DNA from: Haplodiscus bocki
Taxonomy: Eukaryota
Reading direction: 5' to 3'
Length of the DNA stretch: 64,000 nt
Assembly: GCA_965655095.1 (NCBI GenBank)
Contig: OZ296650.1
Span: forward strand, 80,290,001 to 80,354,000
Positions 18,321 through 61,717 of the stretch are shown here, piece by piece. The notes below the pieces were generated by a model, which was not told where the DNA came from, did no database searches, and saw nothing but the letters and a program-made list of their open reading frames with translations. Numbering within the stretch: the stretch's first letter is position 1; every line of letters begins with the position of its first letter. The position numbers and the translations under genes are program-made.

Positions 18321-20396
18321 CACTGTAAAACTGGCGCGTGCAAAATTGCCTGCAAACGCAGGTAACTTTACATGCAGTTCGCAGGTAAAAAGATCCCTCG
18401 CGCAGTTTACCTGCGTTACATGCAGTTTACCTGTAAATACAGGTAAATTTACCTGCTTCGAGGCGGCAAGCACCTCGCGCAGAACACACGCGAATTGCCT
18501 GCGGGCGCATGTAAATTTACCTCAATACCACAGGCATTTTACACGTAGTTATACATGCGGAACTCATGCAAATTTGCCCGTGACTAGCATGCAAAATTGC
18601 CTGCTTCTGCAGGCAAAAATACATGCAACTTACAGGCAAAAACAATGGAATCGCAGGTAAAAATACCCGCCAAACGCAGGCAAGAATAACTGCAAACGCA
18701 GGAAAAAATACCCGCACAATCGCAGGCAAAAAATCTGCAATTCCACGCAGAATTTCGTGCAATTGCAGGCAATCTGCTATCACACCGCGGGTAAATTCAC
18801 CAGCAAATTGCATGTAAGTTAGCCTGCATCATGCAGGTGAAGTTACCTGCAACTTGCGTGCTTTATCAAGTGCTATCGCGTGTATTCTGCGTGAGGTGCT
18901 TGCCGCGTAGAAGCAGGTATAATTACCTGTTTTTACAGGTAAACTGCATGTAACGCAGGTAAATTGCATGTGGGGCCTTTTTACTTGCGAACTGCAGGTA
19001 CAGTTACCTGCGTTCGCAGGTAATGCAATCTTGTCGAAAATCTATCATTACTTGCGGCAAAGCTAGAAGGGAAGACGCACAAACATAAGAAGTAAAGTTG
19101 CAATGCATTTCTAAAGCTCATCAATTGATATTACAAAATCCTATGGCTAAGAAGTACAAGCATTTTTAAAGAGCAAACCAGAATACCTCTCAAACTAAAC
19201 ATCGAAAAAAATTGATGTCGTCAAAAAAGAATACAAAATGAGCAATTATTGCAGATTTCAGTCCATACAGATATTAAGTCAACGAAAGAAGCCATTTTCC
19301 AACAAAAAAACCCAAAATCAATCAATTCGTGGTCAAATCGCTTTTGGAATCCAATTGCATACGTTTCCGTCTAAGTGCAACACGAGAAAACTTCAATCTA
19401 AAACCTGAAACACAGCTGAAGAAACTCATTCCAATAACGGAAGCAACTATACCCACCAATACAATGAAGTAAAAGAGAAGCTGTAACCAGTTTCCTTCAT
19501 TTATGTCTGAATCATATTTGACCACTAGGTCTAAGACATGTATGCATCTCAAAAGTTCAAGGTTTTTTCTAGTCTTCGCAGGCCAGAAACACATTTCAGG
19601 CACGCACAGGGCCACCTATGAGCATGTGCGTTAACAGGCTCCATTAACATTTTTCAAAGCAGAATGAGAACAGTATACGAAGTAGTATATCATAAGACAG
19701 TTAACTCAAAACTTGGAAAACAGTTTATTTGGTTTTCAGAAGTAATCAAAGACATTTACCACTACTTCCAAGAAAAATAGGCTGGAAGACAAAAAAGACA
19801 GAAATTAAAATTGCATTGCTTTCCTAAAGCTTATTAATCGATATTACAAAATCATATGGCTAAAAAGTATACTGTAAAACTTGTGCCTTTTCTTCACAAA
19901 GTTTAAAATTCAAGTTGCTTTGAATTTTTTTATGTAGCCCGATAAGATCCTTTTTAAAGTTGTTTCCTCTCTAGATTTAGGAGACAACAGCCAGTTCTCG
20001 ATCATTTAGATGGCAGTGAAGACTTTTTCAGCGAGCTGTTTTTTGGGATAACCGTTTGAAGAGCCAGCACGGAACACTTCAACGTTTTTGGAACAAAGTC
20101 AAAATTGAAGGGTTCATCATTGACTTCAAAGGCAACAAAAGGTTACTTTGGTCAAGGTGTTTGGAACTGGATAAGAAGAAACGTCCCAAGGATTGAAAAA
20201 AAGCTCCCGGACGCGAACAAAAAAAATTTCATGTGAATTACCTGCGGGGGCAGGTAAATTTCCGCCAGTTACGCGCAGAAACCGCAGGCAATCGGTACCT
20301 GCGGAGATTTTTGCCTGCATCCGCAGGTATTTTTACCTGCGGATCAGTTTACTTGCGGCCTTCGCAGGTGATTTTGAACGCGCCAGTTTTACAGTG
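18321..20396. mobile_element. CACTG-terminal (CMC/EnSpm-like) non-autonomous element with foldback subterminal repeats
   Basis: CACTGTAAAACTGGCGCGTGCAAAAT (18321-18346) versus ATTTTGAACGCGCCAGTTTTACAGTG (20371-20396): a 25/26 inverted match with TG on both flanks. Dense GCAGGTAA/TTACCTGC repeats at 18321-19024 and 20225-20396; 18345-18495 and 18877-19024 form a long inverted repeat. It could instead be two truncated copies. Confidence 0.7.
19322..19530 (-). CDS. Candidate terminal exon encoding a transmembrane helix and short basic tail
   Basis: A ttag acceptor at 19534-19531 is followed by (D)LVVKYDSDINEGNWLQLLFYFIVLVGIVASVIGMSFFSCVSGFRLKFSRVALRRKRMQLDSKSDLTTN*. No homology recognised. Confidence 0.3.
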
Positions 20397-20875
20397 TGTC
20401 CTCAGCTTGTGTAGTAGCTTGGTGCTATTTCTCACTGTTTCTCAAAACTCAACATTTCATGCAAAAATGTGCCAGAAAAATTTTGAATATTTAAGCACAC
20501 AGTGACAAAAAGCAAAAACCATTTCTCTGTTATGACTGCTTATGGTCTGCTGCGCATCAAGGTTCTGTTACTTGTAGGAAACTCAGTTTGCCGTAGACTA
20601 TTGGCAGTGAAGCATTAAAAGTTTTCTGCTCAGCCACTACGCAGGAGTTTGTTTCTCAAAAAAATGTTAAAGTTGAATGAGTTAGACAAAATCCACAGTT
20701 ATAAAAAAGCACCGAGTTTTAGACAAATGTTTCGAAAACAGCCAAAAACACCTGGCGATTGAGTATTAAAATTTCTCAAATAATAGCCAAGTCTTCAATC
20801 CATGAAAGCTATTCAAAGGCTCAGAATAATTTGTTGCTATGAGATTTTACTCATCAGTCAACTTCAACTAAATCT

Positions 20876-23817
20876 TGTAGAATTTTCAGGAATTTTACTC
20901 CCAACTCGTTGAAAACGTGGTACCACTGTTCACGAGACGGGGAAAGGGCCGAGATCCACAAAAAAAAATTGATCACCAATATCAATCAAAGGGACATACA
21001 ACTTTGGAGGCGGTCGGGTTCTTCTGCAAAATCAATGCCTAATCCTATAAATTTTATCGTTCAACTGAGAATGGTGTCTCGTAGCTCTGGACTGTTGGTT
21101 TGAGAAATCAAAGTAATTTATTGTCTGGGAAAATACTCGAATTAGCTCGGTCAGTTTCTCACAGACAAAGTCTTACGGTTGATAAACCTAATAACAATAG
21201 AACGATAACGGTTAAAAAATCATTAATGGCAGATAATACTATTGGTTGGTGTTCACACATCAAAAAAAATCGAATAAATACTTCAAAAAATACGTTAAAG
21301 TAAATAATAGCATCAATCGATTTTGAGAAAACTTAAGACCACAACCTCACGTTGATAGTCAGAATTTTTCTCACCACTTATCCTGGAATTGGATCGAACA
21401 CCAAAACCACAACTCGAAAATTGTTGAACGTATTTTCTAGTCTCAATAGACTCTTGAATAAAGAACTAATCGAATCCAACAGTCGCGGACTGTTCAACAA
21501 AAACTTCTCAAAACGAACGTTTTCCCAACTTCAGTCCTCGACTAGGTTGAAAAAAACAACAAACAGCTTCAAGCAAAGTAGAAAGTGTACGGCAATTCAA
21601 CTTACTTTTTTTGGCAGCAATTAAGGACGCTCCTTTTGCCTATGGTCCTCTTCGTTTCGTACTTTTACCGCTAGGGCTATTTGCGGCCCTATTATTATTC
21701 ATCCGGTTAATCATATCCAATACTTTGCAGAATCACTTACCGATTTTCGGTGGTTATCTCGCTTATCTCACTTCGGTACAATAATAATCAGTTTTGGTAC
21801 TCCTCCGTGTTTTTTTCTGTGGTCACATCAGATATGGTTAAATGGTTTTGGTCGTATCCACTGGCAAAATGGGGGTGTTAAAAATGATTAGGAAAATTCC
21901 CGTTCGTTTAGATCACTATTCAGATTGACAAACTCTTCAAATTGAGGTGTCAGCTATTCTTTTCGTCGCACGTGACCATGTACTTCCAAAAAGAGTGGTT
22001 AAAATGTCTTCCCCAACCATTCCCATCATAAGATCCATGCAAAAATAATTGTCCGAAAAGAAGTGTGATTTCTGTCTAAAAATCAATGTTTACTTCTGTC
22101 TATAATGAACGTCTTATAAACAAAATTAGCACCCTTACACACAATTTTCAATGTATTTTTTTGAAATTATGATTTTGTCACAGTTGTTTTTACTATTTAT
22201 GTTCGAAAAATGCGATTTTCTGCAAGGACTCAAAATTCCCTATTTTTCCTTTTATTCCCTGAGGGTGGTTGTTTCCTGTTAGCACCTTCAAAGAGGAGTA
22301 TTTTAACGAAAAGATAACCTCTCTAGGCTGTCTCAACAAAAAGTTATTCAATTTCTGTAAAAAGTACCAATTTTTGCCACTTTTGGCTACCTATGTCCTC
22401 ATTTAATTTCGATTTTCTCAACGTACAGGCAGAAAAAAAAATTTTTTGTCAACCTCCAGGGGAGGTTGTTGGAATTATTCTGTTTAAGTTTGAGTTTTCT
22501 ATCTCTTTTGGCCTGCGGGGAGGTACCCGTTTTGCAAGTCGACCTTTTCCAAAAGCCGTGATTTTAGCTAGTTGTAATTTTGTGGTTTGGCCATTTGTTG
22601 CTTGCTACATTTACGCTTTTGTTTATTTTCTTTCCTCCTATTGATATTTTTTTGATTGCTTGTATAGAAGTTGATTTCTTTGGCTATTCTTTGACTAATA
22701 TTCAAAAAAGTTCGATTTTTGACAATTTCAGGCTGTTTTGGTCGTTTTTCGGCCATTTCTTCCTCAGTTCTCCAAAATGACTAAATCTACTCAATTCAGC
22801 TTTTCAGGGACATTAGTCCATTCAAATATTATCGGTTTAGGAAATTTGCGAGCCTTTTTTGTTGTGTGGTTCACTCAGAAAAAATTTTTAACTGAAAAAA
22901 TTCCACCAATTTCCGCAGTACACGTTTCGTTTGCAACATTTTTTTACTATCTTAACTTCGATTTGGCTCAAATTCCAAGCGGAAGCTTTCCTATAGATGT
23001 AATTTACAATGGTGAAAACCGTTTGTGGATATCTTTTTTCTTCTTCGATGAATAAGGAAGCAAACAATGGGGACCATTTAAAAAAGGCTCTAATTTTGAG
23101 CAGCGAAAGCGTAAGTATGCTATTACGTGGGGTGCTGGTGGCCGTGAGCGTGGTCAGGAATCACTCCAAAATCACTTCTATTGTATTTTTTTTGTCTTTA
23201 AAACATTTTATTTCCACTCCGATTTTACTTTTATGCTATCCTAAAGTAGCAACTGAACTGTAAATTCACAATTTTATCAATTTCCGGACCGTAATATATT
23301 TCCTTCTAATTTTTCGACAACTTCGAATTTTCAGACTGCTCTGAAAAACACCTAAATTGTTTGCCCTGCAACCTAATCTTCATTGGTGGAATTCGTTTTG
23401 CTCTATCTATCACGGCCTTTGAAAAAATTGGCGTTAAATTTCGGATTCTGAATAGACCAAGTTTTAAATTTTATGCTGCTGTTACTTTGCTATGTTAATA
23501 CACGTGACAAGGTCGTTCCAAAAAACTAATACCTGTTCCGCGGCTTGATGTTATTCCAACGTAGTGCGTATTCCGTTCAACATTCACTTTTCACGAATCA
23601 TTCTTACTGCTTAGTTTCACACAATTCACGTGCACTAACATAGCGAATACAGTTCTGCAAAAAAGGCAAATATGATTGACTGTTTTTTTTAACTTCTGAC
23701 CATCAACCTATTCTTAACTATTAAATACGTAACTTTAAACAGCAAATGAATGGCAGAAAACATAGATCAATGTTATATTACTATTAAAACAAAAAAATGT
23801 GTGCTATAAAGCCCACA
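20876..23817 (-). repeat. 3' LTR (2942 bp)
   Basis: The + strand reads TGTAGAAT...GCCCACA and is colinear with 32603-35545; it is preceded by TSD AATCT. Confidence 0.95.
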
Positions 23818-23829
23818 TTCCCCCCACCT
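23818..23829 (-). promoter_or_regulatory. Polypurine tract
   Basis: Minus strand AGGTGGGGGGAA lies immediately before the TG of the 3' LTR. Confidence 0.9.
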
Positions 23830-24352
23830 GGACTACTACTCTCCTAAGTAGTTGCTAGGGTCAAAAAAATATTTCCGTCGTTCTAATTCGGTAACGAGTA
23901 TCCACGTAGTAAAATGTTCATCTTATTTCATTTAAATTCACTTCAAAAGGAACCGATTTATATCTACACACTTCTGTACACTTCAACAACCTTTAACGTT
24001 TCTTTTTTAAAAATCTAATTCGTCCAAGTGGGAAAAACTTGATGGTACACGTTAGATTATTGATCAATGCAGGAAATTTTCATACGTCGCCTTTTAGGGA
24101 AGGCAGATAAGTACAGCTCGGATTTTTGTAGCAACATCATACAAAGATTTTATCAACACCATCTCGATCTTACGTTTTATAGCAGGAGTCTGCTGACTAG
24201 TTTTTTGACAGCAACTTTTTGCAACTCGTCTGTCGCTGGGAAGTTTCTGGGCGAACAGACTTCCCTACACGTTTTTGCTGTAGGACACCTTCCTTTTGTG
24301 CTGCGTCAAGGTTACTCAATTGCATGGCGGCGGCAGCGGCGGTCTCGTCATC

Positions 24353-26492
24353 TTAACGTCTGAATCTTTCCATATACTTCCTCACTGCATACAGTTTCAC
24401 CTTTTTAAGGGCCCAGCCTAACAATAGCAATAGCTCCAGAGTAATCAAAGTGGCCCCACACGGCAAAATAACATCTCTCCAGATTTTCTTCCTGATTGTT
24501 GTGTGCACTTCCTCGACCTCTTGCATAAAGGGCTGTACTACTGCTGCTAACTTTTCCTCAGTGATACGGCGATCAGGCGAACCTACTAAATTCAATTGTG
24601 AGTGCAATTACAAATTTTGATGGACATCTCCCATCAGTTCAGGAAGGATAACTTCTAATTCTTTCAACCCTTCGAAAAATGGAAGCAGTAAGGGAGCGGG
24701 TAGAATTCGCACAGTATCAGTGGATTCTTGAATACACGTAAGGGGTTCTGGGGTTAGGAATAAACCAGCGGCCGGGAGTTGTAACCTACCTTTACAGGAG
24801 GGTTTTACTAGGCAACTTTGACCTCTGGGAACGCGAATTTCCCCTTGATCTGTCAAATTTTGCATTGTAAAATCTCCCGTCGCAGATGTCAAATGATACG
24901 TCGAATCAAACAAATACAGGGCCTGCGGATATTGAGTTAACGCGACAACTTCTCGGGCACACATTTTCAGGACGGTAGCGGGAAGATTAAAATATAAGAT
25001 GGTTAAACAAGTCATCTTCTGCGACTTAGTTGTTGAAAACGGTTGTTTAAAAAGTCGTAGCCGGTGCGAACTCCAGCAATGGGTGGAGACTTCTTGCTCA
25101 GTAACTTTCGCAAAATTCGTTTTTTCCCAAGACATGAGTGAGTGCGTTTTTGACACGAGTGAGTGCGTATTGTGCCACACTTTCGGTTGGCGGTATTGCT
25201 TGGGGAATAGGAGTTGCTCCGAATACGTTGTGTACACCGTGTCCCGTGTGGAGTGCAATCTCGATTAGCAAATGCAACCTCTCGTCCGATATAAGAGCGT
25301 CTTTCACAACATCAAAGGAATAAGACGCGGTATTAGAATACTGGGAATCGTCTCAGTCAATCTGTACCCATCAAACATGTCTAAAATTTTCAAAAGGATT
25401 GTCGGAGGATTCAACGCTATTGGTAGGTATCCGTGAACTATCGAAGCCGTCGCGTCTTGCATTAAAGAGGCCATACTGGCCAAAGAAATACGTTGCTGGT
25501 TTACATCGTTTATTAATCGGCGATACTGAATAGTTAAATTTCATAGGGAAGCTGCTATGATAAGTGTGTTGCAATGTCCGTCTTGTATATGTCTAGCGAC
25601 GCCCTATCTTTTTACTACGAAGCCTTCATTCTCTTCAAGTACATCTGTAATTGTCTCATTTAACATATCTACGTTCTCTTGGATGTTCCCTTCCAAGGTG
25701 GGGATCTTTCTCTTCTCAAAGTCGGCCGGCATTCTAACGGTTATTGCTTCCAAAAACTTAGACTTTCGATAAAAAACGATCTGTTCTCAATGTTTAGGTT
25801 GCCTGGCTAGGGCTTCTAATTTCTTCCGCTCGTCTTCCTTACAAAGTGAACCAAAAGGGACTAATTTGTCAAGAAAGCCTAAAAATTCATCTTTTATCGG
25901 GGCCGTAGAAGGTCTGAGGGAACTTCTGGATAATTCACTTCCTAGCGCGGTTCCAACAGTCGGCACTAAGAGAGATCTCTTGTACCTGTTCGGTTTTTCA
26001 AAGGTTCGATCTTGCAAGGAGCTGTTTAGGAACACGATAAGCAGTTGCCTGACAATCTCGAGATCTGACTTGAAAATCTGATGGCTCTGAAAAACTTCCG
26101 GTATTGTATCGCGTAAGAATTGCTTCCAGTAAGATAACAGATGCGTGTCGACGCATTCGTGTTGGAACATTCTAAGTTGTAAATCATTCAGTTCAAACAA
26201 AGCTTGATCCAAGATCTGATTCAAGGGTTTGGGATCAAACTGGAGTATCTTGGGAAAAGGAGTGGAAGTCCATAAAGCTTTGAGAGCTTTTAGTAACACA
26301 ACTGGCGGCTCAGGTGTAAGCGCAGCGCTTGAAATTGAGTGTGATCCGTTACGAATCCCTAAGGTATCTTGTCGTCTCTGGAAGTCCCACTCATCAAAAC
26401 CGTCAACGAGATTAGTAGTTTCTATTGTCGCAAAAACTAAGAAAAACAACAATCTCCACGTCGTAAGAGTTGAAAGAAAAAAATGGAAACAT
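24353..26492 (-). pseudogene. env: env-like class I fusion glycoprotein (disrupted)
   Basis: Signal-peptide-like WRLLFFLVFA; furin-type RYKR (25976-25987) followed by hydrophobic SLLVPTVGTALG; Cys-containing ectodomain (HCWSS...MTCLTILYFNLPATVLKMC...SCLVKPSCKG); C-terminal TM (VILPCGATLITLELLLLLGWAL) followed by basic residues. It lies between IN and the PPT and has several stops and frameshifts. Confidence 0.8.
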
Positions 26493-26819
26493 AAAAGAAA
26501 GGGAAAAATGAGGTTGTTCAGAAATGACTAGTAAGGACCGTGGAGAGTTTAAAGAGACTGTTTACTATTTTGGTCGGCAAGTGAATGACGGGAAGACCGT
26601 TAGTGAATCGCCAATCGATTCCGATCGCGGTGTCTCGTACCACGACAATTGTGGAAAAGGGTTGGTCGAAACGAACCATTTGTAATTCGCTCTATCGGTT
26701 CGCCAAATCAGAATGAATGGTGAGTTTGCATTACTTAGGCGACTCTGCTCACCGGGAACAGTCATGCCCGAAATATTCACTCTGTATTGATTCTGGTTAG
26801 GAAATTCGCATATCCTGAA

Positions 26820-28000
26820 TCACACAAGCGGTCTCCTCACTCTACTTTCAGGGCCTGTCGGGACACCTGAATCTTGTTGCGATTCTTTTCGTGAACCATG
26901 GTCCACGTCTAAAGGTCGTTTGGATTCATAGTTGTCCACGGTTCTCTGTTCGTTCTTGATTTTTTCTGAATCATCGCCAGGTAACGTTTCAAAGGCGGTC
27001 AATTGCGGCAAAGGCTGGCGTTCATTACTCTCATCTCGTGATGCCTTTTCGATTTCCGACTCGGAGTCTTGCTCTACAATCTCTGGTAACTGGTAACGCC
27101 TAATTTCATTCTCGGGTCTCCCGGAGGTTTCGCGACAAACAAATCTATGTGGAGATAGCGCTGCTCTCCCAAAAATCATGGAGTACGGCGTCGCTCCGAT
27201 TGTTCGATGAACGGTGGTGTTTTACACAAAAGTAATTCAAGGCAAATACACAACGCACGCATATGGTTTTTCCGCGCAATAATTTGAAAGCGTACCGGCA
27301 AAAACTCTATCAAATCGGTCAACTTGCCCTATTCCTTGGGTGATACGGCGTAATTTTCGTTTTTCCAGTCATAAATTACGGCAAACGTTTTGCATTAATT
27401 CAGTAAAGAAACGCGACCCTTGATCAGTATGAATCACGTCCGGAGCTCCAAATTCCATTCTCCACTCGTCTATTATGGCGTTTGCCACCATTGCAGCCGT
27501 CATGTCCTGAAGTTCCACCGTTACTGGGTATTTCGAAAACAAATGACTCATAAGTCGGATGTATCTGGCCCTAGATGTTTTGCCTATAGTGACTGGTCCC
27601 AAAGTGTCGGCTGCCATAGTTCTAAACGCCCCATGGACAAAAAAGTTTGCAATTCCGCTTTCCGTTTATTGCCAGCGGTAGACCTGGCTGCACAACAATC
27701 ACAATTAGCTATTTGTTTTTACACTCGTTTCAAGTGTTGGCCACCAAAATATTTGTTTTGTCCCTGCTAAGTCTTTCTCGACGCCAAAATGTCCACCACT
27801 TGTTGGTGAATCAAACGATTGATACAATATCTCGTTTTTCATTTCTTTAGGAATAATTGGTTGGCAGCGTTCATTTACCCGGTTACTAGTTTTCCATTTT
27901 CTGTACAAAACTTCGTTAGATGACGCGAGATCCTCCGAATTACTCCAAAGTTCTAATGCTTCGAGGTTTTTCCAAGATAGGGCTTCCTCCTCGGAAATAG
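26820..28000 (-). pseudogene. Integrase (Zn finger plus DDE core), disrupted
   Basis: SFDSPTSGGHFG...FWWP, CDCC, ADTLGP...SHLFSKY, FGAPDVIHTDQGSRF, YHP, NTTVHRTIGATPYSMIFGR. Confidence 0.93.
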
Positions 28001-28239
28001 GGTTCGTTCCGAAAGTGAAATGGGAACCTTCTAAACTTGCACTATATCGTTCGAATATAAAATTTATCATCTTAAATGCGGAATCAGAAGGCTGTCTTTT
28101 CGCGAGTGTCGAACCGGGTCCACGAAATTCGTTCATTGCGCTTTTGGTCAACAACATTACCTGTGGAGTTATACTGCGCAATGATTTGGTTCGCTTGAGG
28201 TGTTTTCACGAGGATTGGATAAAATCGTGTTCTGTTTTG

Positions 28240-28660
28240 GGAGTAAATACAGTTAAAGTACAGTAAACATGTTAAAAAATCAACTCGAGACAAATAATAA
28301 CGTTTGTTCAATCTAATCGGTCATCTGCAACTCCGATTCGAGGCATTGGTAAACACGAAACAACTTTCAACGCTGCGTGCGCACTCAATTCTCTCAAACA
28401 CGATTTCAAGTCATCATACTTTGCAACAGCAGTGTACTTTTCTTTAGTCATCAATAAAAAGATATCTCACGGTTGCTCTCTGTCCCAATACACTAAAATT
28501 CCTCCGACACGATTGACAGAGTCGTCTCTCGGCCTGAAATGCGAATATCTAACAACAAATTCCGTCATTGGCAACGATTTTAATCGCATGTTGCCTGAGA
28601 CACAAAAAACCAAAGAATTGGACGTTTCCATTAAATTTCGCTTTGCATATTTCACTATTT
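28240..28660 (-). pseudogene. TARG1/OARD1 (Poa1p-like) macrodomain inside pol
   Basis: Single frame: IVKYAKRNLMETSNSLVFCVSGNMRLKSLPMTEFVVRYSHFRPRDDSVNRVGGILVYWDREQP*DIFLLMTKEKYTAVAKYDDLKSCLRELSAHAALKVVSCLPMPRIGVADDRLD*TNVIICLELIF*HVYCTLTVFT. It is colinear with the human OARD1 motifs as I recall them: YVKGDL, SLAHCIS, YYLITK, YENLQKSL, MPRIGCGLDRLQW, ITVYT. Confidence 0.85.
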
Positions 28661-29011
28661 CTCTCGGTGGATGCGGGATGTGCATTCTAGCGTGCACTAT
28701 TACGTCGGCTTCCTTCTTTTTCAAAGAAATACTGCTATTTGAATTGTCTTGAGCATCACCGAACACTTTTTCCGTGGTTTGAATTTCCAGGATTTGACCT
28801 CGCATCTCTTCTTCTTCGCCTCTTTTCCATTTTGGCTTCTCACATTGGGCCTTCTACTAAGTCCTTAGGCGTTACAATGTTTCTCTTCCGGCCTATGAAC
28901 TTTTCGGTATTTATATTCTTGCATCTTCTGAATAATTTGGAACGTCATTCCGTCGGCGTTTTGTCTGAATAGCCACTGAAGACTCGCTTGATTGTTCCTC
29001 ACTATATATTG

Positions 29012-30261
29012 TTATCCATAAATGTAAGGGCGCAACCATTGCATTGCTTGTATGATAGCTAGCGCTTCAGGTTTTGTTGTGGCGTAGTTCACTTCCGTTT
29101 TACTCAAGACTCTGGACTCAAAAGCTATCGGACGCTCTTCCCCATCGACTATTTGCGACAAAACAGCCCCGAGTGCCGTTTCACTTGCGTCTGTGTCAAT
29201 TTCAAAGGAGTGGTGGAAGTTTGGCAACGCTAAAATCGGAGCTTGCAACAATCTTGTTTTCAGGAACAGAAATGCATCTTCATGCTCTTTTTCCAACGTA
29301 AATTTTACTCCTTTCCTTGTCAATCTGTACAAGGCTTTGGCGACTTCTGCAAAAATTTTCACAAACTTTCGATAATAATCACAAAACACTGTGAGAGGTC
29401 TCACTTGGGTCACTGTTTTTGGACCTTCCCAGTCTCTGACTGCTTCCAGTTTCTGCGGATTTGGTCTAATGCCCGTTTTATTTAACACATGACCTTGATA
29501 ATTCACTTGAGTTTGTAACAAATCGCATTTCTTGGGCTTCAACTCTAATCCGGTTGCGCGCAGTTTTCGAAAAACTTTCTCTAGGTGTTCTAATTGTTCC
29601 GCTGGCGTCTCAATATGTACTAACAAATCATTCAAGAAAATTAGAACATGTTTAAAGAGGTCTTCTTTGAGATGTTCATTCATGAGTCGCTGAAAAGTCG
29701 CCGGCTCATTCGTCAATCCTAACGGCATTTTCAAAAATTCGTCAATATCACCCTCCGAGGTACAAAAAGCAGCTTTATTACGGTCCTTTTCCGCTACTGG
29801 CATTCGCCAATAGCCTTTGTCTAAATCAGGTGACGAAAAATATCCTGCGCTTTGCAATGCGTCTATCGTTTGTCCTATCCGCGGAAGAGGATACGTGTCC
29901 TTCGTTGTTATCTCATTCAACTTGCGATAATCAATACACATTCGATTCGTTCCGTCCTTTTTCGGGACCATTACGATTGGACTTCCGTTTGGACTTTTAC
30001 TAGGGACGTTGACCCCTTTGTCTAACTTTTCCTTGATTTCCTCCTGAGCTGCAGGCAATATATATGGAGTAACTTTGTAGGGAGCATTTGTGAAAATGGG
30101 TTGTCATTAGCATCTATAAAATGTTCCGTCTTTATCGCGGTTCGGAGAGTGTCTTCTGCGAGCGCAAAAACGTCGCGGTGTCTACCAATCAAGTTACTCA
30201 ACTTTTCTTTTATTTGACTGTTTGGCAAATCCGAGGCGACTAGCTCAACGATTCCGTTCAC
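29012..30261 (-). pseudogene. pol: Reverse transcriptase plus RNase H (Ty3/Gypsy), disrupted
   Basis: SPIVMVPKKDGTNRMCIDYRKLN, YPLPRI, DLDKGYW, MPLGLTNEPATFQRLM, IFLND (decayed F/YxDD), KPKKC, IDTDASETALGAVLSQ, IAFESRVL, NYATTKPEALAI. Confidence 0.97.
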
Positions 30262-30357
30262 ATCTCTATTATCTTTCTCTAGTACTTTATTAGAGACAAC
30301 TGGCTTTTCAATTTTGTCTCCGGTTTGGAGGACACAAGCCCTTTCGTTGGTCGGCGG

Positions 30358-30786
30358 TTACAAACTGTCTCCTACGTATAAGCGGACTGTCGTTTTGGCT
30401 TGATCTCTTATTCTAATCTTAAGAGTTTCGTTTTCAATGTCTACTCGACACTTAGTATCACACAGAAATTTCAGACCAATCAACACATGTGGGTACAACT
30501 TATCTACTACAATGAGTTCATTCGTACTTCCATGCTTTCCAAACGCAACTTCAGCTATCATTTTTCCATCTATAGGCATCAAATTCCCTATCGGGCCTAA
30601 CAAACGGTGCTGGTTTACGGGTTGTCCGACAAGGGACGCCTTGTGGCGGCTAATTAAACTAGTACTCGCGCCAATGTCTACTATGGCCCAACAGGGCAAG
30701 TCCTCAACTTCGCATTTTACCCATATTCTGGGGCTTTGTCTAAAATTTCCTGTAGCTACAACACTTGGTTGATCTGTACTTTTCAC
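30358..30786 (-). pseudogene. Retropepsin-like aspartic protease
   Basis: AIVDIGASTSLIS (D-T/S-G motif decayed to DIG) and HVLIGLKFL (ILG motif). Confidence 0.9.
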
Positions 30787-31109
30787 TTCAATTACAACGG
30801 GTTCGTTTCTTTGTTGGATCCTAAAGGATCAAGGTTCGGAGTAAACAGTTTGCGTTTCAAAGGAATGGTTTCGCGCAAAGCTTTTGACAGGGGGTTCTTA
30901 TTCAGGAAAAACGCCACTTGGGCCAAAATTTTCGTTCATTTGGTTCCAACTGGTGTTATAAACGTACCTCGACAAAAAAATCCGGCCGTAGCGGTTCTCT
31001 GAAATCTGCGACCTGTTTTTCTTTCGTTACGTGCTCTCGATCAGTAAATTGACTATTTTTTAGGGCTGGTTTTCATTTAGTGTAGCAGTTAGCTACTGTA
31101 GAGTCGGCT

Positions 31110-32520
31110 GAACCCAATTTAAATGATCGCTTTTAATCGTTCGTTTGGGACAGTCAAGCGCAAAATGCCCAACTTTTTTTACTTTCAAAACATTCAGTTC
31201 ACAAGAAAGATGGATTAGTTAGACGGACGCGAACGAATGACTTGTTTGGAGCGAAACGGGTACTCGAGTTTTGAGGTGGCTGATGTTGCGTATGTGTCTG
31301 TGGTAAGTGCCCAGAAGTGCTGCTGCGAGGACCACCAAGGACTCCCACCAACACTGTCTTCAGGTCATTCATCGATGTGGCCATCGCTGTTGTCATCACT
31401 GCCGGCACCTGCGTCATCGCTGCTGTTAGTTGTGAAAATTTGTCATTCATGCTCTTCATCAGCTGTTGAGTAGCGTGTCCCTGTCTTGCTACTGTTGCAT
31501 CCAATTTGTCCAGTCGATTCGCCACGGTGCCCAACGACGTGTCCAGGGCTGAGAAGTTCTATTCTATTTGACCGGGAGAGTTTGGAATGCTAGCTCTACC
31601 ATTTTGTCATGCTCCCAGTCATCGTAGGAAAATCGCACTCTGTCTGCTCGTGTTGTCTTGTCTCGCCGCTGTTCCACATCTCTTGCGTTTATCTGGATCA
31701 ATTCCAGTTCTTGTGAGCGCTGCAAAGTTTCACAAAAATAACAATTTGTTATATCTTCAAACAATTTTTGCTGGAGTCTCGAATCAGAAAGCCCTTCTAA
31801 AAACTGATCACGCCAATCCTTGTCTTTCTCTTCGAGGGTTTCTTCAGAGAGTGCTAAGTCATCTAGGTAACGGACGCTTACAAAATACTGTTTCAGGGAC
31901 CCATTTTTCTTCTGTCTAACTGATTTAAACTCTCTACGGGTTGCCCCAGGACTCCTATACTGTTGCATTTTTGGTTAAGGAATCTCTAACAAAGTTTCAA
32001 AAAATGGGGCTGCTTCCCCTGGTATTTTCTCAAAATATTTGCGTGGAACGGTCTCGAACTGTTCAACCGCTAACGTGGTTAAGCAAGCTGGGAGTGTTGT
32101 TACAGCTTACTCATCTGTCTAGCTGTTCACCTCAGCCACATATTTGTAATGTTTCAGCCATAACTCCCATCTGTTAAAGTCTTTCCCAGGGATTTTCTCT
32201 GGCTTGATAGGAGACTTCTCATAAACTGCTTTCTTTTTCCGGTGCCGCGCGCCTAGAGGTTCTGCAAAAATAGATTCCCCGCCATCGGAGCCACTTGTCG
32301 TACCCAGCTCCCGAAGTATGAACTGCAAAGCTTTCATCTGCATTCTCAAATCATGTGCTGCTGTTCTTTTGTCTTGTTTCTCTGCACACATGGAAGAAAA
32401 ACCAAAACCCAACTTACTCGATCCTGCCCGGGTATGCTTTTTCGAAACGTCATCGGGGTTCCCATTGACACCGGGGGATTCCTCTTGCTTGCAAGTCTGT
32501 GTTTCGTTGTCGTATATCAT
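31110..32520 (-). pseudogene. gag: gag (capsid-like domain plus decayed CCHC knuckle), disrupted
   Basis: PIKPEKIPGKDFNRWELWLKHY, EFKSVRQKKNGSLKQYF, RDQFLEGLSDSRLQQKL. A knuckle remnant CFES-KK-VGHFALDCP lies at ~31145-31195. Confidence 0.88.
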
Positions 32521-32582
32521 TACAATCGTAAAGGGATAAGGGAAGTTTCTCAATAACGGTATTAAATAAATCAAGAGTCAAT

Positions 32583-32601
32583 AGCCCACCTAAGAACGCC
32601 A
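32583..32601 (-). promoter_or_regulatory. Primer-binding site, tRNA-Asn-like
   Basis: Minus strand TGGCGTTCTTAGGTGGGCT lies 1 nt after the 5' LTR. Its complement AGCCCACCTAAGAACGCCA matches 16/19 positions of the vertebrate tRNA-Asn 3' end as I recall it (AGCCCACCCAGGGACGCCA). Confidence 0.75.
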
Positions 32602-32602
32602 C

Positions 32603-35545
32603 TGTAGAATGTTTAGGAATAAAACTTCCAAGTCGTTTAAACCGTGGCACCACTGTTCACGAGACGGGGAACAGGCTGAGATCCACAAAAAATTTATAAC
32701 TCCAAAATCAACCAAAGGGAAATTCAAATTCGGAGGCGGTGGGACTCTTCTGCAATATTTATGCCTAACTCTATAATTTTTAACGTTCAACTGAGAAGGG
32801 TGTCTCGTAGCTCAGGACTGTTGGTTTGAGAAATCAAAGTAATATGTTGTCTGGGAAATTACTCGATTTAGCTCGGTCAGTTTCTCTCAGACATATTTGT
32901 ACGGTTCTTAAATATAATAACAATAGAATGATAACGGTTAAAAAATTAGGAATGGCAAATATTACTATCGGTTCGTGTTCACACATCAAAAATTATCGAA
33001 TAAATATTTCAATAAAAACGTTACAGCAAGTAATAGCAGCAATTGATTTAAAGAAACCTAATACCACAACCTCACTTTGGTAGTCAGAAAATTTCTCACC
33101 ATTTCTCTTGGAATTGGATAAAACACCAAACCCAGAACTCGACATTTTTTGGAGGGATCTTCTAGTCTCACCAAACTCTCGAATAAAGAACTTATCGAAT
33201 CCAACAGTCCCGGACTGTTCAACAAAATTTTCTCAAAATGAACGGTTTCCCAGCTTCAGTCCTTGACTAGGTTGAAGAAAAAACAACAAACGGCTTGAAG
33301 CAAAGTAGAAAGTGCCCGGCAATTCAACTCACTTTTTTGGCAGCAATTAAGGACGCTCCTTTTGCCTATGGTCCTCTTCGTTTCGTACTTTTACCGCTAG
33401 GGCTATTTTCGGCCCTATTCTTATTCATCCGGTTAATCATATCCAATACTTTGCAGAATCACTTACCGATTTTCGTTGGTTATCTCGTTTATCGCACTTC
33501 GGTACAATAATAATCAGTTTTGGTACTCTTCCGTGTTTTTTTGTTTGGTTACATCAGATATGATTAATTGATTTTGGTTGTATCCACTAGCAAAATGGGG
33601 GTGTTAAAAATGATTAAGAAATTTCTCCTTCTTTCCCGTTGGTTTATGTCACCATGTTGGTTGACAGGCTCTTTCGGTCGATGTTTCTACTGTCATTTTG
33701 TGACGCGTGACCAATTACTTTGGAAAAGAGTGGTTAAAACATCTTCCCTATCCATTCCCATCATAATATCCATGCAAAAACATTTGTTCGAAAAAAGTTG
33801 TACTTTTTGTCTAAACTTTAATAGGTAATAGTGTCCATCATGAACGTCATAAAAATGAAATAAGCATGAATTTATACGCAACCTTCATTTTAGTTTTTGG
33901 CAATGTATGTTTTGTCATAGTTATTTTCAATACTCGTGGTCGGAAAATGCGATTTCCTGCAGGTACCCAAAATTCCTTATATTCCCTGTTATTTCCTGGG
34001 GATGGCTATGTCCTGTTAGTAAATCTGAGAAGGAGTCTTTCAACTGAAAGATGATCCCTGTAACTGGTCTCAAAAAAAAGTTATTCAATTTCCTGAAAAA
34101 AGTTCCGACTTTGATCTTTTTTGGCCACCTAGGTCCACCTTTAAAATCGATTTTCTCAACGTACATGTAGAATATCGAAAAATGTTCCGTCGGTTTTCTG
34201 AGGAAGGTTGTTAGGAAGATTTGAGCTTTGTATCTCTTCTTGCGGGGGGTGTAGCCGTTTTGCAAGTCAACTTTTTCCGAAATCCGTGATTTTAGCCAGC
34301 TGTAATTTTGTGGGGCGGCCATTTGTTGCTTGCTACATTTACGCTTTTGTTTATTTTCTTTCCTCCTATTGATATTTTTTTGATTGCTTGTATAGAAGTT
34401 GATTTCTTTGGCTATTCTTTGACTAATAATCAAAAAAGTTCGATTTTTGACAATTTCAGGCTGTTTTGGTCGTTTTTCGGCCATTTCTTCCTCAGTTCTC
34501 CAAAATGACTAAATCTACTCAATTCAGCTTTTCAGGGACATTAGTCCATTCAAATATTATCGGTTTAGGAAATTTGCGAGCCTTTTTTGTTGTGTGGTTC
34601 ACTCAGAAAAAATTTTTAACTGAAAAAATTCCACCAATTTCCGCAGTACACGTTTCGTTTGCAACATTTTTTTACTATCTTAACTTCGATTTGGCTCAAA
34701 TTCCAAGCGGAAGCTTTCCTATAGATGTAATTTACAATGGTGAAAACCGTTTGTGGATATCTTTTTTCTTCTTCGATGAATAAGGAAGCAAACAATGGGG
34801 ACCATTTAAAAAAAGCTCTAATTTTGAGCAGCGAAAGCGTAAGTATGCTATTACGTGGGGTGGTGGTGGCCGTGAGCGTGGTCAGGAATCACTCCAAAAT
34901 CACTTCTATTGTATTTTTTTTGTCTTTAAAACATTTTATTTCCACTCCGATTTTACTTTTATGCTATCCTAAAGTAGCTACTGAACTGTAATTTCACAAT
35001 TTTATCAATTTCCGGACCGTAATATATTTCCTTCTAATTTTTCGACAACTTCGAATTTTCAGACTGCTCTGAAAAACACCTAAATTGTTTGCCCTGCGAC
35101 CTAATCTTCATTGTTGGAATTCGTTTTGCTCTATCTATCACGGCCTTTGAAAAAATTGGCGTTAAATTTCGGATTCTGAATAGACCAAGTTTTAAATTTT
35201 ATGCTGCTGTTACTTTGCTGTGTTAATACACGTGACAAGGTCGTTCCAAAATAACTAATACTCGTTCCGCGGCTTGTTGTTATTCCAACGTAGTGCGTAT
35301 TTAGTTCAATATTCACTTTTCACGTACCCTTCTTACTGCTTAGTTTCACACAATTCACGTGCACTAACATAGCAAATACAGTTCTGCAAAAATGGCAAAT
35401 ATGATTGACTTTTATCTTAATTTCTGACCATCAACCTATTCTTAACTATTAAATACCTAACTTTAAACAGCAAATGAATGGCAGATAACATAGATCAAGG
35501 TTAAAATACTATTAAAACAAAAAAATGTGTGCTACAAATCCCACA
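32603..35545 (-). repeat. 5' LTR (2943 bp)
   Basis: The + strand reads TGTAGAAT...TCCCACA, followed by TSD AATCT; colinear with 20876-23817. Confidence 0.95.
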
Positions 35546-37390
35546 AATCTTCTTTCTGGTGCAACTGCAACTCTTCTTTAGCTTAATGCGCTTGTAAAGA
35601 TTTAAATTGACTGCGACATGTATTTGTATTGTCGTACAGTCAACCCTCGAATATCTCTCACTCTAATGACCTTCATTTTTATGAGCTTGTACTTTTTGCT
35701 CTGGTAAATAGACTCCAATCTCAATTCCACGTTTTCGACATTTAGACTACATTTGTTTTGCTTTCCGGATCATGTTTATAATCACTGATCCCGAAAAAAG
35801 CAAAAAGTGATCTAAGAAGTTTTTTTCGAAGTTTTCGCTAATTTTGGAAAAAATTCTAGCAAAATAATGTAATTTGGAGCTTTAAAGTTGCTGAAAACAG
35901 CCAATGTGTGTGTTTTTTTAGTTTTTTCGCATCTTCCTTTCTTAGCAGTTTTTCAGCGACTAGTTCACACTAAACAGATACAACACGCATTTGATAAAAT
36001 CATGAAAAACTTGAAAAAATTTGCCAGAAATGGGTGTGACGCGCTTATTTGTGAGCAAAAGCATCGGCTTTAGTGATTTTTTTCTTGATTGTCGCTTTCT
36101 TGATTGCCACGTCAGTTTTATGGCAACCAATCTGAGCAAAAATAAATTTTCAAAAAGTCTCTGATTTTTTGACAGTGTTAATAACGAAAATGAAGAACCA
36201 AATATAGTGCTCGTGAAATCAAGAGGTGTCCGTACAAATGATGAAATACACCAATCACGGGACGAAAACATACAAAACAAACAAAAACCAAGAATCACAT
36301 ATTTTCAAAACATCAGGATCGCCCCCTTAGAGTACCTGAGATATAGGGCAGCACCTTTCGGATTGTTTTTAAAGTTGGTATTTGTCTATGAAATTTTGAC
36401 TTAAAATTTGGCTCCTACTGAAACTGAATGGCATCGACGGTCACCTTTTATTGCTTAGTGGTCATCGGGGATCTAAGCTGATACGTACTATTTCCTTGGA
36501 GATTAATAAAAACCACATGACTTCCGAGAACACTCGGAGAAATCTAGAATATTTTCCCCCAACATGTACGTTAATGAACCGTGCATAGCACAATCATTAA
36601 AAGAGACTTCGAACGTGTCTGACTGTGGTCTTCTATGCGTTGAAACTGAAAATTGAATTTTAAAGGCGACCATCGAGAAAATGATGGAAGTTTATGCATT
36701 TTTCTGCAAAGCGTGCAAATTATTTTTCCTGGAAGACCGTGATTTGACAATGCCATGCAAACCTTTACTAATTCGTAATCATTTCTATTGATCAGAATAT
36801 TTGAAGCGATAAAAAAATTGGCCAAGATTAAACTATTTAGGGTTAAACCTTGTTTCATGTTCTACTGCATGCTATCCCGTAGCTAGATAAATTTTGAGTT
36901 TTACTTCAAGACAAATAGCAAATTGTAAGTTATTTATGTATATCAAAATTGCGTCTTATATGTGGTTGCGTGAAACCAAAAGTTTGCTGGTCAAAGCATA
37001 CCGACAAACGTTCAAATTTGAGCGAACACAATCATTCAGTATACATGCATTGATTAAATCGAGCACGCGTGTTTCACAAGAACAACCAGACACCAATTTT
37101 CTGAGAAGTGCGCGATGTCTGTGGAAAAGTGATGCTCTGAAAATATGTCGACAGATTGGACAAAAGCTTCAGTATCAATATCGTTAGTACAAAACTTTAG
37201 TGTAAATTATCTCCACGATAAGACCACAGGGATCTTTTCTCTTAACCCCCCCCCCCACCAATTGTAACGTGATTTTAACTACCCCCCCTCCCACGCAGCA
37301 GCGAACGCGTCTGTGATTGGTTAAAATTCGCTCGTGCCTGAGTTAAAACATTACACCGCTTATTACTTCGCGTATCCATTATGGCGTGCG

Positions 37391-58554: not shown

Positions 58555-60408
58555 TGTAATGATTCAAGATGAAAAACACTCTCTACAAGAAATGATGAAT
58601 CTGATTTTCCGGGAACAAACTGTCGCAGCACACCTGCGAAGCCTGCGGGCAGATAATCCCAGCAGCAAAGGACACCCCAGGCCCATCAACTAGAAATTAA
58701 GAACTGTGCCAGAATCAAACTGACTCCTAGAACTTTTAAAACTAACCATTTTATTTAATAATTGATGTACTTTAATTGTGTGCACACATATGGGCACGTA
58801 TATCTACGTACCCCCTCTAATGCACAAAAATATGAATAGTTTACGTAGGTGGCACGTGGCAGCCACGTGCCACCCCACGCTATTCTATTCTTGGAAAGGC
58901 ACGTAGTAACTACGTGCCGCCCCATATTATAAAAGGCACGTGCCCCGTACGTGGAATTCTGGTGAACTGATCCTTATTGGGACGGAATAGATACGGAACA
59001 AACGAATATTCATTGTATTTTTATATTTATTTTAGGTGCTATTATATATATAATCTAACTAATTATTATATAAATCCAGCTTTCTAAATTGATTAGTGCA
59101 GTATGTATTCTATTTAAATTGACAGCTTGTTGAGTTTCAATAGCTTGACTATTAAGAACGGAGCTTGACTTTAAAAGTGAATATTTGTTCCGTATGTGTT
59201 CCGTCGTAACTAATCTGGTGACGTCACTACAATTCTTAACTAATCCGCTGTGCTATTAGGCTGCGCCGCTTTGGTTGGCTACGTGCCGTCTACGTGGCCA
59301 CCAGAATTAATCTCTTCAGTAGTACTGCGGAAGGCAGTGCTACAAGTGGCTACGTGGACGCCACGTGCCACCACAGCCAAAGTAAGCCGTAACCTAGTAG
59401 AAATATGGAATGGGCTAGGATTTATGCCTAGTTTATCCCAGGAAATGATTTTAAATGATGCAACATGTAAACATGAATCTTTCTAGAATGTAAGCCTTTA
59501 TTTTCCATACTTTAGATTATTTTCCAAGTGTATTATTGTATTTATTCCCTGTATGGGAATGACTTTGATCTTATGTCCATATCTTTATTTATTGTGTCGG
59601 CGCGGAAATAACCACTTTGATGTCCATTTCCGACGGATCGGACCGTACTCTTTTCTGTCGAAAGATGGACAGGACGCGGTCCGTGAGGGAAGAAATGGAT
59701 GGAAAGGTGTTTATTTCCCGCCGGAGTCGGCATCTTTTCTTTGATATATAATATGATTAAAGTACTTTTCCCTATTTGTACCTTGATCTGGCGTGTAAAC
59801 AATTATGTTTCCCGCCAAGGAAAGGTATAAATAGGAGAAATGAAAGTACAATTTTTATTATTTAATTTGCTGCCTGCAAGTACTGTACATTTATTGACGT
59901 TTGTGACTGTTTAAATCTTGAAGACTCTTTCCCTCATATTAAAAGAGGAGCATCTTTTGAATAAAGAAAATAAAGTAGAAAATTCAGTCTTCACAGCTGA
60001 AAAGGTTTTCCCCAAGCAAAATGGCAACATTGAGAAATAAAAGAAAGTTAGCAGCAGTTTCAAGAGAAACACCTGAAAGTACCAGAAGTGGGAAAGCACC
60101 AAGCGTTCTAGATCCAGAACTTACTCAGGAGTATATCTCTCAGGTCTCAGAGGAGATTGAAGGGAGAGTTACTAAAAAGCTCTCAAAGGAATTTAGCAGG
60201 ACGGAATCACGTATTTTGGGAGCCTTGTCGAAACTTGACGAGTTTCTCTTGAACCCACAAGTTCGGACTTGTTCCGTAGTTGCCCCCGGAACCTCTAGGA
60301 GCAACAATTTAGAAAACCAGGGAACCAATGAGGATCGTACCTCAGAGGATCCTGGGCCTGAAGTGGAGTTTGCTTCCCCCATCTCAGGGGCAGAAACAAA
60401 TCCTCACA
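58555..60408 (+). repeat. Putative 5' LTR (~1854 bp)
   Basis: Starts TGTAATGATT and ends AATCCTCACA (8/10 inverted match), directly followed by a TGG PBS. TATAAA at 59826; AATAAA at 59960 and 59969. The 3' LTR is outside the window, so the limits are unconfirmed. Confidence 0.65.
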
Positions 60409-61673
60409 TGGTAACAGGAGCTACAGAAGCAAATCCTCTCATGGTGACAGGAGTTACAAGAGAATTTCGCCCCCACATGACAACGGAAACCCAAGAAGAT
60501 ATTCCCTACTGCTCCACGAGTACTTCATCGGGGAAACAAAAGAAGGCGCGCTCTACAAGTCAACCTCAATTTCGCAGTGAGAATACCCCTGCGACACTGG
60601 AGGCAGACCAGATTTTGTTGGCCATTCAACAATTGGCGACGAACTCCAATTCAGCCAATTTCAACAACAACATTAGCCGAATTTCGAAACTGCCGAAATC
60701 TCTAACAACGACAATGCCCACGTTTGATGGAAAATCAGAGAAATTCGAGCTGTTTGAAGACTTATTCCAAACGAGTTTGAAAATTCACAACCAGCTGACA
60801 GAAGAAGACAAGATTAACTACTTCCACTCTCTCATGCGTGGTGATGCTTTGCAGACCTTCAAAAACATCACGAGCCCCAACAGAGAGAATCTGGTAGAAA
60901 TCCTGAATGTGTTTCGTAGGAAATACGTGAAACCTCAGTCAATGGCTACGGCAAAACACAAATTTCAACGACTAGTCTTCAATCCAATAAACCAGAAGTT
61001 AATTGATTTTCTTGACGAACTCCAGAAATTAGCCAAGGACGCATTCGGAGTTGCCGCACAAGCGATTGTAGAACAATTCATCTATGCCAAAATGCCTCCA
61101 CACCTGAAGAAATCAATTAACCAGGCACATTTGGAGAACGGCACATATGAACAGATTGTGTCACATCTTGAAAGGGAGTTGGAACTAAATGGTTTGGAAG
61201 CCCCAGATGAAATGCAAATCAATACTGTGATGCAACAAGACACACGACAAAACTCTGAAAAGCCCAAACCAACTTGCCACCATTGCAAAAAGCCAGGCCA
61301 CTATCGAAATCAATGCCGTCAACTCAAACGAGAGAAAGACCAAGTCCAAAACAATACAGATAGTGCCGCAACTAACAAAAACAACAATGGTAGTGCCCAA
61401 ACAAACTCCAACCCCAACCACAAAGTACCAGTCGCAAACAAGGCGAACAATGCAAATAATCAAAGAGACAGGAAAACTAGACCTGTTTTCCCACCCTGTG
61501 AGACATGTGGCAGAACGAACCACTCCACAGAGAGATGCTACCATGGAGCAAACGCAGCGAACAGACCGCCGCCCAGGAATAGACGGCCGGAAGGACAAAA
61601 CCAAACCCAACAAAGGAATACTCAAAATAACTCGGATGGCAACGTCCAAGCAGCAGCCCAACCTTTAAACTAA
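60021..61673 (+). CDS. gag: Gag polyprotein, 550 aa, two CCHC zinc knuckles
   Basis: Intact ORF with MPTFDGKSEKFELFEDLF, KINYFHSLMRGDA and EQFIYAKMPPHLK; knuckles CHHCKKPGHYRNQC and CETCGRTNHSTERC. Confidence 0.96.
   Translation: MATLRNKRKLAAVSRETPESTRSGKAPSVLDPELTQEYISQVSEEIEGRVTKKLSKEFSRTESRILGALSKLDEFLLNPQVRTCSVVAPGTSRSNNLENQGTNEDRTSEDPGPEVEFASPISGAETNPHMVTGATEANPLMVTGVTREFRPHMTTETQEDIPYCSTSTSSGKQKKARSTSQPQFRSENTPATLEADQILLAIQQLATNSNSANFNNNISRISKLPKSLTTTMPTFDGKSEKFELFEDLFQTSLKIHNQLTEEDKINYFHSLMRGDALQTFKNITSPNRENLVEILNVFRRKYVKPQSMATAKHKFQRLVFNPINQKLIDFLDELQKLAKDAFGVAAQAIVEQFIYAKMPPHLKKSINQAHLENGTYEQIVSHLERELELNGLEAPDEMQINTVMQQDTRQNSEKPKPTCHHCKKPGHYRNQCRQLKREKDQVQNNTDSAATNKNNNGSAQTNSNPNHKVPVANKANNANNQRDRKTRPVFPPCETCGRTNHSTERCYHGANAANRPPPRNRRPEGQNQTQQRNTQNNSDGNVQAAAQPLN
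60409..60420 (+). promoter_or_regulatory. Putative primer-binding site (tRNA-Leu-like) within gag
   Basis: TGGTAACAGGAG directly follows ...CACA; a second copy, TGGTGACAGGAG, is at 60442-60453. Both resemble the TGGTGTCAGGAG complement of a tRNA-Leu 3' end. Confidence 0.6.
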
Positions 61674-61717
61674 ATACGCCACGTCTTCACTCCGGAAATG
61701 CACGTGACATACCGGAG
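61664..61717 (+). promoter_or_regulatory. -1 programmed ribosomal frameshift signal (slippery heptamer plus H-type pseudoknot)
   Basis: In-frame T TTA AAC (61664-61670) directly before the gag stop. Stems CACGT 61680-84 / ACGTG 61702-06 and CTCCGG 61690-95 / CCGGAG 61712-17. The -1 frame is open into the protease. Confidence 0.88.

Follow-up and report, generated by a model that had tools for sequence, protein, structure and literature searches.

Macrodomains are a known counter-defense in RNA viruses and phages, and those of alphaviruses belong to a class other than TARG1. Within the ALC1-like class, human TARG1 (also OARD1 or C6orf130) is the described protein closest to the domain analyzed here. 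Its catalytic dyad consists of Lys84 and Asp125 (PMC9411070, PMC7050489), and ADP-ribose binding and catalysis are both abolished by the substitutions G43E, I44E and G123E (PMC5928194). Among LTR retroelements, some epsilon-like endogenous retroviruses of fish code for macro domain proteins, according to a review (PMC4977317, citing Basta et al. 2009); the earlier note mentions macrodomains in pol of some aquatic-vertebrate retroviruses and LTR elements. By that review's description, the teleost epsilon-like viruses resemble the present element in combining a macro domain with an LTR retroelement, but are members of the Retroviridae and encode the macro domain in additional reading frames. The "ancient errantiviruses", as described in the relevant sections of bioRxiv 10.1101/2023.10.26.564294, share with the element the gag-pol-env order, an F-type env, and a single RNase H that is separated from the integrase by a small domain made of a helix and three strands; the macrodomain in the bridge of pol is an addition in our family. 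The bridge section of that paper describes no macrodomain, and in its main text "macro" appears once, for moths.

The window, the whole stretch of 64,000 nucleotides of Haplodiscus bocki contig OZ296650.1 that was analyzed (positions 80,290,001 to 80,354,000), contains an env-bearing LTR retroelement of the Ty3/gypsy type on the minus strand (window positions 35545-20876, to which all coordinates below refer). The element is bounded by two LTRs of approximately 2.9 kb with TG...CA ends, the 5' LTR at 32603..35545 and the 3' LTR at 20876..23817, which are 88% identical to each other, and is flanked by a 5-bp target-site duplication, AGATT (upstream copy, 35546..35550; downstream copy, 20871..20875). 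A TGG stretch adjoining the 5' LTR is a putative primer-binding site (32585..32601), and a polypurine tract adjoins the 3' LTR (23818..23829). The gag gene (31096..32550), interrupted by stops and frameshifts, was delineated by tblastn at 71-82% identity with the Gag of a natural copy that itself contains the Retrotrans_gag and zf-CCHC domains of Pfam. The broken pol (26802..31168) encodes protease, RT, RNase H, macrodomain, a "mini"-like domain and integrase, in this order. The RT and RNase H part covers 28844..30100 (Pfam PF00078/PF17917 at 29012-30103) and the H2C2 zinc finger of the integrase lies at approximately 27717-27854 (PF17921, E 3.9e-8). The env gene (24200..26518) contains seven stops. 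All three genes are interrupted by stops, frameshifts are found in pol as well as in gag, and about 490 bp are missing from the integrase near 27090; this copy is dead. The TG...CA LTRs, the target-site duplication, gag, and the order protease-RT-RNase H-integrase are those of Ty3/gypsy elements (Metaviridae); the RT tree was built without named reference Ty3/gypsy elements and without a reference retrovirus. Elsewhere in the window, a second, unrelated LTR retroelement begins on the plus strand (59979-64000), with a gag-like ORF containing DUF1759, Retrotrans_gag and zf-CCHC, a protease-like ORF and, where the window ends, RT-like sequence. At 18345-19024, two inverted repeats of 149 bp (88%) are spaced 382 bp apart and may represent a MITE.

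After RT and RNase H, and before the H2C2 finger of the integrase as placed by Pfam, translation of positions 28242..28658 on the minus strand yields a TARG1/OARD1-type macrodomain of approximately 140 residues with a remodeled ADP-ribose pocket. The frame, running from 28658 to 28242, reads IVKY...FCVSG...RLKSLPM...LLMTKEK...MPRIGVADDRL...TLTVFT and is interrupted by exactly three in-frame stops (28469-28467, 28310-28308 and 28274-28272), the number given in the earlier note. With X at the stops, the best match in a search of PDB sequences was human TARG1/C6orf130 (query residues 67-204, E 2.3e-8), and TARG1 accounted for five of the six PDB sequences with E<=1. The alignment with the human protein is colinear from the first strand through the last, and human numbering through the PDB alignment confirmed that the equivalents of both Lys84 and Asp125 are present, as previously proposed. 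A Pfam search with the window copy gave no match at E<=0.1. In the PDB sequence search, an unbroken sister copy, P0005, matched TARG1 with an E-value of 6e-16. The first reading of this locus, a TARG1/OARD1-like macrodomain between RNase H and the integrase zinc finger, is thus upheld by the PDB match and the flanking Pfam domains, and the domain is real. The further claim that the glycine-rich RMGAGIA loop of TARG1 reads RLKSLPM stands in part: the loss of the loop glycines is family-wide, but the Leu is a change of this dead copy, most family members having Ser or Thr in its place.

Structure prediction, which the earlier note had proposed as a check, gave the same answer for an unbroken natural copy. 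The AlphaFold model of P0005 (pLDDT 90.5, from an alignment of 95 rows) adopts a macrodomain fold, and its top Foldseek match was TARG1 (4j5q, TM 0.83, E 2e-14); the top eight matches were all TARG1, followed by DarG and Poa1p. The bacterial DarG macrodomain is similar in fold (TM 0.76-0.78) and is matched by the NF048014 profile (E 3e-8), but at 33 bits against a cut-off of 250; identity to DarG is only 16-18%, the C-terminal domain of DarG is lacking, and the domain sits within Pol. A search for DarT gave no match, as it did for the controls. RNA-virus macrodomains such as that of alphavirus nsP3, whose anti-PARP role is the model for the eraser idea, belong to the same superfamily (TM ~0.7), but those of alphaviruses are only 8-12% identical to the domain of this family; TARG1-like folds were found also in arthropod RNA viruses and phages. 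An artefact or a chance match is ruled out by the E-values, by the fold, and by the domain being free of stops in 138 of the 150 scored genomic matches (hand count). Retroviridae, lokiretroviruses among them, have a dual RNase H (tether plus RNase H). In the natural copy, Pfam detects one RNase H region, and the bridge between RNase H and integrase folds as the macrodomain plus a small domain. In the model of the bridge (342 residues, pTM 0.49), the macrodomain stands as a separate unit flanked by linkers of low confidence. After it comes a region of one helix and three strands that, by our reading of the model, may correspond to the "mini" domain of ancient errantiviruses. The bridge model has no fixed packing, and a fold search with it returned macrodomains alone.

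The third ORF of the family, read from sequence, comprises 786 codons and includes a signal-like N-terminus, an RYKR site and, toward the C-terminus, a hydrophobic segment. Its top match in the Atlas was a Baculo_F cluster (0.90), and a profile of four env sequences had as its best PDB match a "fusion protein" (9w4d, E 7e-4); a Pfam search of env gave no match. The support for an F-type fusion protein is good though indirect, and we take this to be the probable identity of the ORF. The description of the retroelement as env-bearing thus holds, and a third ORF for a fusion protein, F- or gB-type, is what characterizes errantiviruses.

A DNA search of the 1.5-Gb genome yielded 358 candidates, of which the 40 scored were 83-84% identical. 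A protein search yielded 4,872 first-look candidates, of which 150 were scored; other families are included, so that these numbers are not a copy number. In about 30 of these 150 matches, the domain lies in an open frame of 1,643 codons. The family copies were collected through the macrodomain. Among the ten copies of the window's family (family A) that were read with flanks, the LTR pairs of nine are 97.7-99.97% identical (>=99.7% in six), and in three the gag, pol and env frames are all unbroken. Near-identical LTRs together with unbroken frames indicate that family A was recently active. In a second subfamily, B, the domain is about 66% identical to that of A, and the LTRs of the two copies read are 99.6-99.8% identical. 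The database proteins P0049, P0051 and P0054 extend the lineage further, at 57-60%; the best match of the P0054 domain in the genome is just 60-63% identical, and this protein therefore probably belongs to another species. In some A and B copies, env and the 3' LTR are separated by a fourth ORF of roughly 300-330 codons (L035:3915-4805 on the minus strand; L095/L096), which had no family match; the window copy lacks it.

Searched with Pfam Macro, the genome yielded 93 matches among 150 scored, and the loci read from this search comprised 18 retroelement domains along with one host gene that, by sequence reading, is MacroD-like and one that is macroH2A-like. Four further env-type families, denoted C, D, E and F, carry TARG1 domains, those of C, E and F in the same slot between RNase H and integrase. 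Their pol genes comprise 1,646-1,660 codons in C, about 1,580 in E and about 1,650 in F; the LTR pairs of C and E are 99.7-100% identical in six of the seven copies read, the env ORFs of C and E are 25-30% identical to those of A and B, and the third ORF of F exceeds 700 codons. The domains of C, E and F all contain Gly43, Ile44, Ala45, Lys84, Gly123 and Asp125, and judging from these motifs are likely still ADP-ribose erasers. In family D, the RT is distant (29-32% identity) and the macrodomain precedes it, following the protease; its pocket is near-canonical, with Phe occupying position 44. By eye, the env of family D (L091-L094, L099/L100) is gB-like, and a segment resembling a degenerate dUTPase precedes the macrodomain; in family C copies (L085/L086, L087/L088), env is followed by a fourth ORF, 321 codons long, that contains a coiled coil and a C-terminal HPD motif, J-domain-like by eye. 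In protein collections, the more distant Pol proteins P0251, P0260 and P0402 carry a canonical TARG1 domain after the integrase. In P0260, a Ty3/gypsy-like Pol, the terminal TARG1-type macrodomain is followed by a Tpt1/KptA RNA 2'-phosphotransferase domain, possibly a writer/eraser pair within a single retroelement. The TARG1-type domains of P0223, P0227, P0252, P0284 and P0333, from other organisms, are fused to DNA ligase and LIG3-BRCT. The three positions of the domain in Pol imply, at minimum, repeated capture or movement.

Selection was estimated by pooled pairwise Nei-Gojobori comparison of unbroken copies (18 of 41 loci used); the pairs are non-independent, so that all values are descriptive. 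In subfamily B, dN/dS of the domain was 0.124 at a dS of 0.26 (eight unbroken copies), compared with 0.07 for RT, 0.02 for RNase H, 0.075 for integrase and 0.128 for the downstream linker/mini region. The corresponding values were 0.075 in family E, from 7 of 8 loci, and 0.15 in family C, from 17 of 25 loci at a dS of only 0.02. The value within family A, 0.32, is based on very few changes and is unreliable because the copies were chosen for domain likeness; the integrase values appear inflated, a single aberrant copy being the probable reason. Synonymous sites are saturated in the comparison of A with B, yet the domain remains 66% identical, and no indels occur among eight aligned representative domains. 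The dN/dS comparison that the earlier note had asked for thus indicates that the macrodomain is under purifying selection, although it is no more constrained than the neighboring linker/mini region. Neutral decay in living members is ruled out by the values for B, E and C.

The pocket of the window's lineage was compared, residue by residue, in the 82 sequences spanning the region among 195 database matches, many of them decayed copies, with 126 outside domains, a few of which are this host's gene or related elements. None of the 82 retains His32, Gly43, Ile44 or Gly123, while 65 retain Lys84 and 74 retain Asp125; Ser35 and Asp37 are likewise mostly kept. The outside domains keep His32 (113 of 126), Gly43 (121), Ala45 (117), Lys84 (122), Gly123 (123) and Asp125 (120), and only two of the 126 lack both Gly43 and Gly123. 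In the lineage, the replacements are themselves fixed: Pro44 in 77 of 82 sequences, Met45 in 70, Val or Ile123 in 75 and Asp124 in 78, and these new residues are near-invariant in four subfamilies. The net charge of A and B domains is -5 to -8 (pI ~5), against an outside median of +4 and +5 to +9 in C and E; in three related domains of the lineage it is -3 to +2, P0049 having +2. The stem branch of the lineage comprises 2.3-2.5 changes per site. Thus, in addition to being part of Pol, the domain differs from human TARG1 in that His32, Gly43, Ile44, Ala45, Gly123 and Leu124 are replaced and the domain is acidic; of the features of a TARG1-type hydrolase, the dyad is present and the Gly43/Ile44/Gly123 pocket is not. 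Such is the pattern of a domain whose job changed before constraint returned, and the kept dyad is what argues most against a fully dead enzyme.

The host has TARG1-like genes of its own (L163 and L166) with canonical motifs, which share 30% identity with the domain of A and 45% with that of E. In L163 (G000:C2:12302000-12311000), the TARG1-like gene is fused to an N-terminal domain of no assigned family, and the neighboring paralogue has a long repetitive tail. In a quick tree, C, E and F formed one group (SH-aLRT 96), separate from the two host genes (98), so that a recent capture of the C, E and F domains from the TARG1 gene of this host is unsupported. For the A/B domain, placement with C/E (p-AU 0.81), with C/E/F (0.61) or with the host genes (0.55) was in no case rejected. 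The comparison with host OARD1 suggested by the earlier note therefore separated the C/E/F group from the host genes but could not place the A/B domain. One old capture is favored by the shared slot and the related env. In a search for host PARP domains, 41 candidates were scored and 31 of them matched, several in long single-exon frames; this set is context rather than evidence of restriction. The PARP-like genes (L143-L157 and G000:C3:80392669), an expanded set, have frames of up to 2,474 codons, and one lies about 39 kb past the window's end.

In the scenario we consider most likely, an ancestor of the env-bearing families would have taken an active TARG1-type hydrolase into Pol, where, being made together with RT and integrase, it would gain access to the complexes of reverse transcription and integration. 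The eraser would have been kept in families C, E and F, where it likely still removes ADP-ribose from element proteins or nucleic-acid ends, whereas the lineage of the window, comprising A, B and two related families that were not found in this genome, would have closed the pocket and fixed Pro, Met, Val/Ile and Asp. We see an even chance that the domain of this lineage is a non-catalytic protein-interaction module rather than an eraser, its ADP-ribose pocket rebuilt and the domain kept under selection; the newly fixed residues would then have taken on another binding role, within the particle or the complex of integration. Several observations count against this reading. The dyad, Ser35 and Asp37 are mostly kept, and one related domain, P0049, is not acidic. 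The human loss-of-function mutations are all to Glu and are harsher than the Ser, Thr and Val of the lineage, ALC1-class hydrolases can use other chemistry, as discussed for SCO6735 (PMC9411070), and, with dN/dS of the domain no lower than that of the linker/mini region, fold constraint alone could explain the conservation. The role advanced in the earlier note, an eraser or decoy, fits C, E, F and D better and is doubtful for the window's lineage with Gly43, Ile44 and Gly123 replaced throughout; a decoy is doubtful too because it would have to bind ADP-ribose. We judge it rather unlikely that the domain, its pocket reshaped, continues to erase ADP-ribose and is delivered along with RT and integrase to counter PARP restriction by the host. 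In favor, subfamilies 57-68% apart share Lys84 and Asp125, selection on the domain is purifying, sister families have canonical pockets, and the host has both PARP-domain matches and TARG1-like genes; against, both diphosphate-loop glycines and His32 are lost in every lineage sequence, a combined glycine loss that is rare outside, and the domain surface is acidic.

The constraint on the domain matches that on the linker/mini region, with dN/dS above those of RT and integrase, and the bridge model depicts an independent domain amid low-confidence linkers, as would be expected of a folded passenger without function that persists since its misfolding or deletion would harm RT/integrase processing. 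This explanation is unlikely, given that simple decay would not yield new pocket residues near-invariant in four subfamilies and that the domain outlasted synonymous saturation without an indel among the aligned representatives. Chromodomains steer integration in other gypsy elements. The macrodomain, which adjoins the integrase, might similarly bind PAR, RNA or modified chromatin without hydrolysis and so steer integration or packaging; TARG1 binds RNA via basic patches, independently of the pocket (PMC5928194), and chromatin readers are often captured by transposons (bioRxiv 2021.11.30.470311). The low pI of the A/B domains and the alteration of the pocket required for PAR binding make such a tether quite improbable. 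Beyond the preferred reading of the window's domain as a protein-interaction module, the elements may be seen more broadly, and tentatively, as party to an arms race of env-bearing elements with expanded host PARPs, in which the domains of at least six families, in two Pol positions, would be mostly active erasers guarding reverse-transcribed DNA or the integration complex, and that of the window's lineage a new binder or an enzyme with a new substrate.

We found no report of a TARG1-type domain in a Ty3/gypsy Pol in the full-text literature, a scope that leaves out most subscription papers and repeat databases; the passages available from the literature on lokiretroviruses, Troyka, ADP-ribosylation (reviews) and chromatin evolution likewise mention none. 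A macrodomain in an LTR retroelement is known as such, whereas a TARG1-type domain in a Ty3/gypsy Pol seems new but may be annotated elsewhere.

That several active Ty3/gypsy families maintain TARG1-type domains by selection, and that across genomes these domains occupy three positions of Pol, suggests that ADP-ribosylation acts on invertebrate LTR retroelements. The genome of H. bocki offers a natural comparison of canonical (C, E, F), near-canonical (D) and rebuilt (A/B) pockets, with unbroken copies of all. If the arms race reading is true, independent captures after the integrase in more distant retroelements would point to a general counter-defense of retrotransposons.
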